Origin: a virus
Lineage: Duplodnaviria > Heunggongvirae > Uroviricota > Caudoviricetes
Virus record (IMG/VR): IMGVR_UViG_3300021399_000116
Location: 40,796 to 104,795 of that record
Direction: 5' to 3' (one strand)
Length of the DNA: 64,000 nt
The notes under the pieces are model-generated. The model saw nothing but the letters and a program-made list of their open reading frames with translations, ran no database searches and was not told the origin of the DNA. Made by a program: the position numbers and the translations under genes. Below are positions 33,567 through 34,916 of this stretch, piece by piece (position 1 is the stretch's first letter; each line of letters starts with the position of its first letter).

Positions 33567-34076
33567 AGCATATTATATATTATAAAGAGTTCGCAAAACT
33601 TTATTTTTCGTTCAATGTTTTAGCATTGAATATTTAGGAAGAACTTTATTACATGTATATTCTTAGACGCATTCAAATAAGACATTTAAGAAAGTGGAAA
33701 GTTCATAGTTAGAATTGGGGTTGTTCTAATTTATTTAGGGTTTGACTTCACAAAGCTCATTCACAAGATTATAGAAAGCGTTCATAACTCCTATAATTTA
33801 TAAAAGGTGCTAATAGTCATCAGAATGAGTACCTGGCTGTAGTAGTTCTACAGAACTTTGGCCCATAGAATTAAGATAACTTCAGTTTATGGGGTGGCTC
33901 TAAGGAAATCATAACTTAGAGTGCGATAGATATAATAAACTACTATACAGCAAGAATATTTATATTATGCGCAGGAAATATAAGTGTTCTTAGTAGATAT
34001 CTATTTCGGTCAGAGATAATTCATAAACTCTGATAAGGTGGTTTTAAATAGTTGTACCCATTAAACAACTATATAT

Positions 34077-34151
34077 GCTTCCTTAGTATAATGGTTATTA
34101 CTACTGACTTGTAATCAGTGAATGTTTGTTCGATTCAAACAGGAAGCTCCA
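34077..34151 (+). tRNA. tRNA-Thr (anticodon UGU), CCA encoded
   Basis: Acceptor GCTTCCT/AGGAAGC (7/7), a D-arm, anticodon stem ACTGA/TCAGT with loop CTTGTAA (TGT), T-arm GTTTG-TTCGATT-CAAAC, discriminator T, then CCA. A 7-bp hairpin (AGCTGGT/ACCAGCT) follows it. Confidence 0.85.
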
Positions 34152-34250
34152 GCTGGTCCATCACCAGCTACAATAAATCCATCAGACTCTTTAAATAGAG
34201 TCACACTGAAGGTTTATAGCTGTACCTATCCCAGAAACAGCTAATTATTT

Positions 34251-34329
34251 CAGGAGACAGTGTAGAGTGCACGTCAGTAATCCCACGGAGGACGAGATAG
34301 TGTTGGTTTAAATCCAACTCTCCTGACCA
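34251..34329 (+). ncRNA. tRNA-like element lacking an anticodon arm
   Basis: Perfect 7-bp acceptor CAGGAGA/TCTCCTG, T-arm GTTGG-TTTAAAT-CCAAC (T instead of the conserved C56), discriminator A plus CCA. The 45 nt between them cannot form a 5-bp/7-nt anticodon hairpin. Confidence 0.35.
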
Positions 34330-34596
34330 TCAGGCCACAGCTCTTTGGTCTGTTTACTTCTATTTTAAGTTAGCTGATATCTTAAAATAGTAGCTAAAAA
34401 TCAGAATTAGGGTACCTTCTCATACAAAGGTCACAGTGTATGACAAATCAATTAGTAATTAAGTGGAATCCAGTTGACTACGAGGATGAAACGAAAAGAA
34501 TAGAGTTTGAGATAAAGTTGACGTAGTCTAAAAAGGTACTTTATGAAAACTTAGGTTAGTTTTATTCTAATTGTTCTTTAACTAACCAGTGCACAC

Positions 34597-34660
34597 AGCG
34601 GTATAGCTTAATGGTAGAGCAGAGGTAATCTAGATGGAGGTTCGATTCCTTCTACCGTTG
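34597..34660 (+). ncRNA. Truncated tRNA-like element (acceptor, D-arm and T-arm only; no CCA)
   Basis: Acceptor AGCGGTA/TACCGTT, D-arm GCTT-AATGGTA-GAGC and canonical T-arm GGAGG-TTCGATT-CCTTC. Only 15 nt (AGAGGTAATCTAGAT) lie where the 17-nt anticodon arm and variable loop should be. Confidence 0.3.
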
Positions 34661-34823
34661 CTGAACAGGACAGTTTTAAAACCACTTGGAAGGAAAACCA
34701 AGCACAAACCCTCGGAGAAGATTAGTACTATTCCGCCTAAGTAAAAGTAGGGGAGGACTAGTACATAATTCTCTCTATAATTCTTTTAAGTCATCGTTAT
34801 CTGATGATGAAAATAATCCTATG

Positions 34824-34853
34824 AGAGCGGGAGCTACATCCGCTCTTTATTTA
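34824..34853 (+). terminator. Rho-independent terminator closing the non-coding RNA region
   Basis: Stem AGAGCGG/CCGCTCT with a 9-nt loop, followed by TTTATTTAT, immediately before the terminase promoter motif. Confidence 0.55.
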
Positions 34854-34916
34854 TGTCATTTTAAAACTTGTTATAAATTATATTAAGAGTAGAAAATTCA
34901 TAGGAGGTTTGTAGTA

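Follow-up and report, generated by a model that had tools for sequence, protein, structure and literature searches.

A structured phage RNA associated with tRNA islands, the largest module of which is a new RNA family

Among the structured non-coding RNAs carried by phages, GOLLD and ROOL are often found beside tRNA islands, and tRNAs can lie inside the variable linker of GOLLD; the function of both RNAs is unknown (PMC5737381, PMC12286853). Phage T4 makes two small stable RNAs, RNAC and RNAD, from its tRNA region, and their roles are also unknown (PMC3014915, PMC9697503). Decades have passed since the first large structured phage RNAs beside tRNA islands were discovered, and none has a known function. 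The locus described here lies in a 64,000 nt stretch of a Caudoviricetes genome (IMG/VR record IMGVR_UViG_3300021399_000116, positions 40,796 to 104,795), referred to below as the window. Positions 33567–34860 are a non-coding stable-RNA island on the + strand, made up of a mosaic of conserved, covarying RNA modules. The island is a phage structured RNA associated with tRNA islands, and its largest module is a new RNA family with no match in Rfam 15.

The hairpins that precede the tRNA gene of the island form one conserved RNA domain of approximately 330 nt with eight helices (P1–P8), and the family also occurs outside the phage clade. That these upstream hairpins are joined in a single domain, the main feature of the region, had been missed in the original prediction, which was made from the sequence of the window. 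The 5′ leader and the parts of the domain are:

33567–33741, + strand: 5′ leader, seen in window-type phages
33742–34072, + strand: structured RNA domain P1–P8, obtained with RNAalifold from a 14-sequence alignment (A5)
33742–33751 with 34038–34047, + strand: P1
33755–33761 with 33824–33830, + strand: P2
33837–33842 with 33848–33853, + strand: P3
33862–33869 with 33886–33893, + strand: P4
33897–33904 with 33915–33922, + strand: P5, loop GAAAUCAUAA
33924–33932 with 33998–34008, + strand: P6, enclosing a variable extension
34009–34017 with 34026–34034, + strand: P7, loop AUAAUUCAUAAA
34048–34055 with 34065–34072, + strand: P8

Loci for comparison were chosen by the identity of the protein encoded just downstream of the island, which has 65 metagenomic relatives, several of them on contigs of 110–132 kb. 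Relatives with the same gene order contain an island of 0.76–2.2 kb, free of open reading frames (ORFs), at the equivalent site. Blocks of the island are common to the types listed below, yet their order and content, as determined using BLAST, vary by type.

Window type: L144, L145 and L147, 93.5% identical
L123 type: L123, L122 and L150–L157, island of 0.76–0.87 kb
L139 type: L139, also L166 and L170
L140 type: L140
L001/L143 type: L001 and L143

L166 (JAFRAK010000039.1) and L170 (JAFQXM010000001.1) are 132-kb contigs binned as 'Bacilli bacterium' metagenome-assembled genomes (MAGs) from goat duodenum. They carry an RNA island that includes a transfer-messenger RNA (tmRNA) and has a core stretch identical to that of L139, and they are probably phage genomes of the T4-like clade that were placed in bacterial bins.

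In the A5 alignment, 94.9% of cells were standard pairs, compared with 33–45% when the 3′ partners were slid by 1–3 columns. Changes on both sides were seen in 32 of the 82 pairs (6–10 in the slid controls), and none of 500 column shuffles reached the observed values. The minimum free energy fold of 33742–34076 recovered the same helices from the window sequence alone (z = −4.31; none of 100 shuffles folded as well). Covariation across related phages had been proposed as a check in the original prediction, and it supports P1–P8; two of the hairpins noted there, CTCTAAG/CTTAGAG at 33894–33920 and TCAGAG/CTCTGA near 34010, correspond to P5 and P7 and carry many compensatory changes. G-U pairs occur at many positions in all sequences and, because these frequent pairs would be C-A on the opposite strand, the domain RNA is on the + strand. 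Variable insertions are confined to helix tips, namely within P2, in the P5 loop (34–42 nt in L139 and L140, 114 nt in L160–L162) and in P6 (13–156 nt). In all T4-like versions, the 5′ end of a tRNA or tRNA-like unit lies 4–8 nt beyond P8.

The leader includes a hairpin, TAGAA-TTGGGGTTG-TTCTA (33710–33728), with a conserved loop and a stem that shows compensatory changes (GCAAG/CTTGC in L001; identical in L139 and L140). The L123 type has no leader, and there a consensus promoter, TTTACA-N17-TGATATAAT, directly precedes P1.

No version of the domain matched any Rfam 15 family, including GOLLD, ROOL, RNase P RNA and tmRNA, at permissive thresholds (E ≤ 10 for window positions 33400–35000; E ≤ 1 for L139, L140, L143 and L133; E ≤ 5 for L168, L173 and L161). 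Identities as 6S RNA, SRP RNA, YrlA, a riboswitch, a ribozyme, GOLLD or ROOL were rejected on this result. An RNase P RNA was also rejected, as it had no Rfam match and the 5′ domain does not contain the P4 strands of that RNA (GGAAAGUCC ... ACAGAA): the look-alikes GGAAAGUUC (33696) and ACAGAAC (33851) vary in relatives, and ACAGAA is one strand of the covarying P3 hairpin. A pseudoknot between the P7 loop (CAUAAAC) and the 3′ strand of P4 (GUUUAUG) was considered, as the two are complementary in the window. It was discarded because the change to GUCUAUG is uncompensated in L139, L140 and L001, and it is the P4 helix that covaries instead. Among isolate phages, megablast of the region found no match, and blastn (word size 11; 50,697 phage records) found only matches of 72–79 nt to the tRNA-Thr segment, with no homology to T4 RNAC or RNAD.

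The P4–P7 part of the domain is an independent unit that is also present in unrelated phage contigs. This core consists of four consecutive hairpins, all found at 33861–34034 in the window, together with near-invariant linkers and loops: UAUGGRGUGG between P4 and P5, RAAWWCAUAA in the P5 loop, GYGAUA before P6, UAUUKCR after P6 and AUAAWWMAUAAA in the P7 loop. Further members were found using degenerate DNA patterns drawn from the invariant parts. They were in unrelated smaller phage contigs and in contigs of Clostridia and Bacilli MAGs, and compact members are only about 130–150 nt long. The core-bearing family is rare, with approximately 11 IMG/VR contigs found under three different patterns. 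The pattern AGGAAATCATAACT was too unspecific, with at least 120 chance matches; the spacing GTGG-N6-GGAAATCATAAC proved correct and N7 did not. The last pattern scan returned two chance matches within ORFs and nothing more. The contexts found are:

L158, L159 and L168 (viral contigs of 27–57 kb and a Clostridium MAG contig): core, then tRNA-Met(CAU) ending in ACCA and a terminator-like hairpin
L160–L162 (viral contigs): layout as in L158, with a 114-nt insert in the P5 loop
L173 (Clostridia MAG, rabbit): core, then a hairpin, a ribosome-binding site and an ORF
L180 (38-kb viral contig): core, then approximately 200 nt, a terminator-like hairpin and an ORF
L183 (46-kb viral contig): core, then directly the ribosome-binding site of a SpoVG homologue

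The unit in L158 and L168 consists of TTGACA-N17-TATTAT, the core (with P3–P8-like helices), tRNA-Met(CAU)-ACCA and the terminator-like hairpin, and is preceded by a putative helicase-like ORF, labelled by reading the sequence. The order in L123 is the same, with a promoter-like sequence followed by the domain, the tRNA mimic described below as Element 1 (ending in ACCA) and a terminator-like hairpin. The layout of promoter-like sequence, domain, tRNA or mimic with ACCA, and hairpin is hence found in two unrelated phage groups. In L173, the core begins at P4, directly 3′ of TGgTATAAT.

Two further analyses were made of the core. An alignment of the four core helices from 13 distinct sequences (A7), which were anchored and joined by fixed spacers and built for counting only, had pairs in 94.8% of cells (at most 43.5% for slid partners) and changes on both sides in 19 of 31 pairs. 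A covariance model of P4–P5 (R1), with a seed of eight sequences that included the window, gave 76.5 bits for the window and 40–49 bits for the non-seed members L139, L166, L140, L160 and L161. Nothing above 17.3 bits was found in about 1.4 Mb of other fetched DNA, including pattern-selected decoys and L133–L138. These last are distant T4-like relatives, and no copy of the P4–P5 core was present in the 8–9 kb fetched for them. IMG/VR has been mined for structured RNAs before (PMC10690425), and pieces of the motif may sit among the 8,495 candidates that were left without a name.

The 114-nt P5 loop insertion was seen in L160 (10350–10666, − strand), L161 (2673–2989) and L162, while the close relatives L158, L159 and L168 have a loop of 10 nt, so that large insertions can be accommodated at the loop tip. 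The tRNA(CAU) of L158 (722–797, − strand) resembles by eye a tRNA(CAU) in the L001 island (5110–5181), including an unusual D-arm, and the L001 copy was missed by ARAGORN. The core and tRNA(CAU) may travel together as a cassette. A homologue of SpoVG, a nucleic-acid-binding protein, is found in the T4-like clade at window positions 30397–30654, approximately 3 kb upstream of the island, and the SpoVG gene of L183 (1172–1411) is directly 3′ of the core. A consistent link to SpoVG was rejected, as none was found in the fetched flanks of L158–L162, L168, L173 and L180.

Downstream of the domain, the island contains a tRNA gene and two units derived from tRNAs:

34077–34151, + strand: tRNA-Thr(UGU) with encoded CCA (ARAGORN; Rfam tRNA, 63.4 bits)
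34152–34249, + strand: spacer module with hairpins GCTGGT/ACCAGC, GACTCT/AGAGTC and AGCTGT/ACAGCT and the motif AAATCCATCA
34250–34329, + strand: Element 1, a non-decoding tRNA mimic with a 7–8-bp acceptor stem, D-like arm, T-arm and encoded ACCA
34331–34352, + strand: hairpin CAGGCCA...TGGTCTG followed by TTTACTT, from the terminator scan, directly 3′ of Element 1
34597–34660, + strand: Element 2, derived from a tRNA; D- and T-arms normal, anticodon arm reduced to a stub (AGA-GGTAA-TCT), CCA not encoded

The tRNA-Thr(UGU) had been recognised as bona fide in the original prediction and is the only gene that ARAGORN reported in the whole 64 kb; a relaxed run allowing introns produced only noise, in the form of overlapping calls with 'introns' of 100–300 nt. 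Its 5′ end is 4 nt after P8. It is 100% identical in L144, L145 and L147, is present in L140 and L133, and is absent from L123-type islands. The spacer module is also found in L140 and, in a different place, in the L122-type island (439–541). Read from the sequences, its first hairpin stays paired as GTTGGT/GCCAGC in L122 and GGAG/CTCC in L140.

Both elements have the stack of a 7-bp acceptor stem and a 5-bp T-stem that defines a tRNA body, and only tRNA-Thr has an anticodon arm with a 5-bp stem and a 7-nt loop containing U33 and a decoding triplet. Elements 1 and 2 are tRNA-derived and are not classed as tRNAs. The original prediction had described them as having perfect acceptor stems and T-arms but no anticodon hairpin. 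The former is true of Element 1, in which the window copy has an 8-bp Watson-Crick acceptor stem and a 5-bp T-stem, and not of Element 2, in which one of the seven acceptor pairs is G-U. A normal anticodon arm is indeed missing from both, but each retains something in its place, a stub in Element 2 and a degenerate 3–4-bp stem with a 15-nt loop in Element 1. Nor did covariance models simply resolve the two as ordinary tRNAs. Element 2 scored 47.4 bits as a tRNA (E = 5 × 10⁻⁷ over the whole window), yet only 8 nt align at the 15 anticodon-arm positions of the model and ARAGORN did not find it, and the window copy of Element 1 had no Rfam tRNA match at E ≤ 10.

The sole Rfam match of Element 1 in the window was a weak one to SpF41 (24 bits). 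This identity was rejected; the match reflects a tRNA-like unit followed by a terminator hairpin, and a normal tRNA-Trp in L168 scores 31.5 bits with SpF41. Orthologues of Element 1 were detected as tRNAs (threshold 29 bits) in L123 (34 bits) and L140 (29.8 bits), and the L140 copy was called as a 97-nt 'tRNA-Thr(agt)' by ARAGORN. There are nine distinct versions, seven of 80 nt and those of L139 and L140 of 98–101 nt. All nine end in CCTGACCA / CCUGACCA, and the encoded ACCA agrees with the CCA end originally described. In the short versions, the central stem has 3–4 bp, with G-C, A-U or A-C as its second pair, and its 15-nt loop (AGUAAUCCCACGGAG) does not vary. In the long versions, the stem is of 5 bp and includes a U-U mismatch, the 7-nt loop (UAAGCAG in L139, UAAGUUG in L140) has A at position 33 and, as read from the sequence, a variable-arm-like hairpin capped by GAAA is present. 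Three compensatory changes were found in acceptor and T-stem pairs. The pair equivalent to tRNA 19–56 is G-C in L139, L140 and L144, G-U in the window and A-U in the L123 type, which suggests a tRNA-like elbow.

Element 1 is the best-conserved segment of the island (88% identity between the window and the L123 type). Either a covarying hairpin ends a few bases 5′ of it or a tRNA and spacer precede it, and there is always a hairpin on its 3′ side: GGCCA/TGGCC in L140, TACCG/CGGTA in L139 and a long GAGTAGG/CCTACTC with a T-run in L123. The equivalent at 34331–34352 is a candidate terminator or 3′ protective stem. L123-type islands, the shortest, contain no canonical tRNA and retain the 5′ domain, Element 1, the hairpin, the 3′ module and the terminator. 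Element 1 is hence not kept for decoding.

It is possible, although not the account we favour, that the tRNA-like elements are plain tRNA pseudogenes with no function of their own in a tRNA island of fast turnover. Module content is shuffled between relatives, and Element 2 fits this description best. It encodes no CCA though tRNA-Thr and Element 1 do, it is absent from L123-type islands, and in genomes approximately 93% identical its acceptor stem goes from 7 bp in the window to 6 bp in L145 and 5 bp in L144 and L147. The erosion involves four changes clustered in the acceptor 3′ strand and trailer, while the D-arm, stub and T-loop are unchanged in L144, L145 and L147 and the T-stem has single substitutions (G-U to A-U). 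Judged from these sequences, Element 2 looks like a decaying or relaxed tRNA derivative and less like a designed element. However, a homologue in L001 (4593–4708) and L143, located right after P8, keeps all its stems through one-sided changes, has an extended hairpin of 55 nt where the anticodon arm would be and shares GGUAUAG..UAAU.GGUA and AUGGAGGUUCGAWUCCUU with Element 2. Element 1 is harder to accommodate, as this most conserved segment has compensatory stems, an invariant 15-nt loop and ACCA, across lineages in which the neighbouring protein is 75–79% identical.

Three more tRNA bodies with non-standard centres are found in L139 (2386–2472, 2975–3042 and 3210–3335). In these and in the L001 unit, the acceptor, D- and T-arms are intact and either a long hairpin or an irregular 26–55-nt insert replaces the anticodon arm, such that they resemble natural 'tRNA scaffolds'.

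A full 363-nt tmRNA (RF00023; 102–105 bits), which had been missed in the original prediction, is present within the islands of four relatives (L139 3468–3830, L140 3034–3396, L166 7585–7947 and L170 4007–4369), with the tags ANYEAEKVAA and ANNVVEKVAA. Neither ARAGORN nor Rfam detected a tmRNA in the window. In L140, the tmRNA occupies the position of Element 2 in the window. Element 2 was nevertheless rejected as a deletion remnant of a tmRNA; its true tRNA D-arm UAGCUUAAUGGUAGAGCA bears no resemblance to GGGGUAGUAUUAUGGUUUCGACAG, found at the 5′ end of the tmRNA in the relatives, and L139 has another tRNA-like unit at that position with the tmRNA further downstream.

The account that we consider probable is of a co-transcribed stable-RNA island in which the tRNA-like units serve as RNase P processing points. 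An early or middle promoter located upstream would drive transcription of all the modules together, and host tRNA-processing enzymes would cut them apart. An acceptor/T-stem stack with RCCA is the known minimal substrate of bacterial RNase P, which would cut 5′ of tRNA-Thr (34076/34077) and of Element 1 (approximately 34250), and 3′ trimming would halt at the encoded CCA. Because cleavage at 34076/34077 would release a discrete RNA, the folded domain with the P8 hairpin at its end, the tRNA and tRNA-like units would act as punctuation and stable ends. Element 1 would have been retained for this processing role or another tRNA-mimic role, and Element 2 would be a relaxed or decaying relative. 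Of the roles proposed originally for the tRNA-like elements, that of processing signals appears to fit best, given the conservation of Element 1, its ACCA, the adjoining hairpins and the acceptor/T-stem stack with CCA.

Several points weigh against this account. Promoter scans of the window were no better than shuffles, and a promoter was not located in the leader stretch. RNase P cleavage is predicted from substrate rules only, and the 19–56 covariation of Element 1 amounts to approximately one independent double change and an intermediate. The apparent counterpart of Element 1 in L001 and L143 has lost T-loop features and CCA, which weakens the case that tRNA mimicry is essential. All of the sequences are metagenomic, so that the host is taken only by inference to be a Firmicute. 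In L173, L180 and L183, an ORF rather than a tRNA comes after the core; tRNA-directed 3′ processing is therefore not universal, and a role as a cis-acting leader is possible.

This last role is the main rival, although we judge it unlikely. The 5′ domain would be a processive antiterminator, a switch responding to a ligand or protein, or a 5′ stabiliser against exonucleases, and the tRNA units would be cargo only. In every well-resolved case (for example, L173, L158 and the L123 type), the core does start between a few bases and approximately 50 nt after a promoter-like sequence, and the cargo may be a tRNA, a tRNA mimic, SpoVG preceded by a ribosome-binding site of its own (L183) or a different ORF (L173, L180). 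However, there is no conserved expression platform; P8 has no T-run and the ribosome-binding site is not occluded in L183 or L173. The T4-like phages have nothing translatable for approximately 1 kb downstream, and a multi-helix fold of 130–330 nt with invariant loops far exceeds the needs of a 5′ stabiliser.

We think it quite unlikely that P1–P8 is an unrecognised functional class of phage RNA comparable to GOLLD and ROOL, such as a trans-acting ribozyme, an RNA-only assembly or a specific sponge for an RNA-binding protein of the host or phage, that works with dedicated non-decoding tRNA mimics. If it were, Element 1 and the tRNA bodies with replaced arms would be natural 'tRNA scaffolds' that provide ends and stability or delivery to the translation or tRNA-processing machinery, and the tmRNA in the cassette of relatives would point to a shared purpose in manipulating host translation quality control.

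Another reading also seems improbable, namely that the domain is a third class of the GOLLD/ROOL type, which would act in trans as an assembly or scaffold made of RNA only, the tRNA and tRNA-like units being linked to it or released with it. The setting is the same, being phage-borne, beside tRNA islands, with tRNAs in variable regions and of rumen or gut origin (PMC5737381, PMC12286853), and the tolerance of insertions at the P2, P5 and P6 tips around a fixed core would suit peripheral elements of a three-dimensional architecture. Against this, no GOLLD or ROOL match was found in Rfam even at E ≤ 10, members of approximately 130–150 nt are far below the size of the ornate RNAs, and neither a self-complementary loop nor kissing-loop covariation was found.

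That Elements 1 and 2 are anti-defence decoys, soaking up host anticodon nucleases or other tRNA-targeting enzymes, is very improbable. They keep the acceptor, D and T features used by tRNA-binding proteins without an anticodon loop, the relatives L001 and L139 hold more tRNA bodies with replaced anticodon arms, and phage tRNAs are considered to counter tRNA-targeting defences (PMC10264068). However, no defence or counter-defence gene was linked to the island among the 26 larger ORFs scanned in the window, and Element 2 is decaying in close relatives. The anticodon loop is also what most anticodon nucleases recognise. Almost no credence can be given to a role of the elements as non-canonical translation factors in codon reassignment, such as the CGG recoding raised in the original prediction: beyond the resemblance to tRNAs and the CCA of Element 1, neither element has a 7-nt anticodon loop with U33, the central loops are not anticodon-like and conserve no triplet between lineages (UAAGCAG against UAAGUUG in the long versions of Element 1), the stem of Element 2 has 3 bp, its loop 5 nt, and CCA is lacking there, and neither G3-U70 nor another recognisable identity set can be read from the sequences.

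The remaining modules of the island and its 3′ boundary are:

34365–34595, + strand: middle structured module with GCTGAT...ATCAG, the long-range AGTTAG...CTAAC and GACTACG/CGTAGTC
34663–34822, + strand: 3′ module with an AGGAYA-loop hairpin (approximately 34664–34675), CTTGG-AAGGAAAA-CCAAG (34685–34702) and further stems
34823–34856, + strand: intrinsic terminator GAGAGCGGG-AGCTACA-TCCGCTCTT with a T-run (hairpin 34823–34847), which ends the island
34871–34916, + strand: island boundary, outside the island, with the TTATAAATTAT box (34871–34881) and the ribosome-binding site AGGAGG (34902–34907) of the next gene

The middle module is conserved with L140 (2733–3026) and L139, and 14 of 43 predicted pairs show compensatory changes, in three sequences only. 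Of the hairpins noted here originally, GACTACG/CGTAGTC (34476–34531) has the counterparts GACTGTG/CGCAGTC in L140 and GACTGT/ACAGTC in L139 and is thus supported. The other, TATTTTAAG/CTTAAAATA at 34367–34395, is not conserved, and the competing GCTGAT...ATCAG covaries instead. The 3′ module is found in all window-type, L123-type, L139 and L140 islands, and its stem covaries (CTTAG/CTGAG in L139, CTGAG/CTTAG in L140). The two covarying hairpins at 34664–34702 have AGGA-containing loops (AGGAYA and AAGGAAAA), and the pair is conserved wherever an island type includes the 3′ module. By sequence, these loops are reminiscent both of Shine-Dalgarno sequences and of the GGA loops of hairpins to which CsrA-type regulators bind. 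A further conserved non-coding block, GTCAGGTGTACACGG...GGAGTTGAAACCTAACAAA..AGCAGTACACAGAA, is present in L001 (4853–4920), L143 (approximately 2906–2975) and L133 (2528–2595) and absent from the window.

The terminator scan found three sites where 0.6 were expected. A terminator had been predicted at the end of the island, and it is conserved in the window and L123 types, with other terminator hairpins in its place in L139 and L140. The TTATAAATTAT box is invariant in all nine aligned island types, and we take it to resemble the T4 late promoter TATAAATA. Because the terminator and this invariant, late-promoter-like box follow it, the island would form the end of an early or middle transcription unit, immediately ahead of the late genes.

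The phage is T4-like and comes from animal-gut metagenomes, and the island lies at the boundary between its replication and nucleotide-metabolism genes and its late structural genes, all of which are on the + strand. On the 5′ side are genes for RecA/UvsX-like, clamp loader, ThyX, serine hydroxymethyltransferase (SHMT) and thymidylate-synthase-like proteins, as well as a TET-associated glycosyltransferase, a C5 DNA methylase, the SpoVG homologue, SPFH/flotillin and MazG-like genes. The presence at 14293–30348 of ThyX, SHMT, the thymidylate-synthase-like enzyme, the C5 cytosine methylase and the TET-associated glycosyltransferase suggests DNA base hypermodification. On the 3′ side are a P-loop ORF of 273 amino acids (aa), an ORF of 346 aa and then a T4-like portal gene.

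The gene directly downstream had been called terL, which could not be confirmed; searches of Pfam (including at E ≤ 1), PHROG and PDB gave nothing beyond P-loop hints for the 273-aa and 346-aa ORFs, which precede the portal gene. The presumed terL consists of these two adjoining ORFs (34917–35738 and 35782–36822), which are in different frames and 44 nt apart. It is arranged otherwise in relatives (237 + 86 + 286 aa in L133, 218 + 378 aa in L135), and HNH and intein domains are present in one homologue (P0039). It may be that the gene is split, or that mobile elements interrupt it.

Between the 101-aa ORF at 33261–33566 and the 273-aa ORF, the region 33567–34916 contains only ORFs of 36–66 aa on either strand, and the frame of the longest, a 66-aa ORF with a TTG start (34686–34886), is broken by indels of 13 and 3 nt in relatives. 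The G+C content is 0.32–0.41 inside the region, compared with 0.23–0.30 in both flanks. The absence of a credible ORF and the locally higher G+C content, both reported in the original prediction, were thus confirmed. In annotation, the region should be entered as RNA genes and not left as an unannotated gap, and the 66-aa ORF should not be called.

The new family is compact and supported by covariation, with a minimal form of approximately 130–150 nt that has four hairpins and invariant loops. Its contexts are informative, as the unit that comes next may be a tRNA, a tRNA mimic, a SpoVG gene or a different ORF, and a promoter-like sequence always lies just upstream. The small size and tolerated insertions should make genetics, structure probing and cryo-EM easier than for ornate RNAs of 600–800 nt. 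The conserved tRNA bodies with a stub or long hairpin for an anticodon arm, one of which has encoded CCA and a covarying elbow pair, may be the natural equivalent of the engineered 'tRNA scaffold'. They could reveal the use by phages of host tRNA-processing enzymes for non-tRNA products.

Comparison with described systems shows likenesses and differences in each case. In MALAT1 mascRNA, the gammaherpesvirus TMERs and mitochondrial tRNA punctuation, an adjoining tRNA-shaped module recruits RNase P or RNase Z to define RNA ends. Element 1 and tRNA-Thr likewise directly follow structured modules and have an acceptor/T-stem stack with CCA. The likeness would be one of analogy only, as those systems are eukaryotic, viral or organellar. 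Elements 1 and 2 resemble the tRNA-like domain of tmRNA in having acceptor and T-arms and no anticodon, but neither has G3-U70 or a tag reading frame. YrlA is also a non-coding RNA with a tRNA-like domain that mimics the T- and D-arms (PMC4201824); here, however, there was no Rfam match to it, and neither Ro60/Rsr nor RtcB was found among the 26 larger ORFs scanned, which cover part of the 64-kb window.

The T4 RNAC/RNAD region is similar in that it is a non-coding cluster of a T4-like phage on the strand of the surrounding genes. It differs in containing eight tRNAs, whereas a single canonical tRNA, mimics and a much larger folded RNA are found here. GOLLD and ROOL differ in size (more than 800 nt and approximately 580 nt, respectively, compared with approximately 330 nt for P1–P8 or 130–150 nt for compact members) and in Rfam assignment; in addition, no pseudoknots were identified here and some members precede ORFs and not tRNAs. 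They are alike in being phage-borne and in their association with tRNAs, with a tRNA or mimic 4–8 nt after P8 and tRNA-Met after the core in L158 and L168. ROOL was also first found in rumen data, and the P4–P7 family likewise comes from herbivore-gut samples (PMC5737381, PMC12286853). By analogy of position, which is next to tRNAs, directly 3′ of promoter-like sequences and ahead of differing cargo, the P1–P8 domain would appear to share the functional grey zone occupied by GOLLD, ROOL and T4 RNAC/RNAD.

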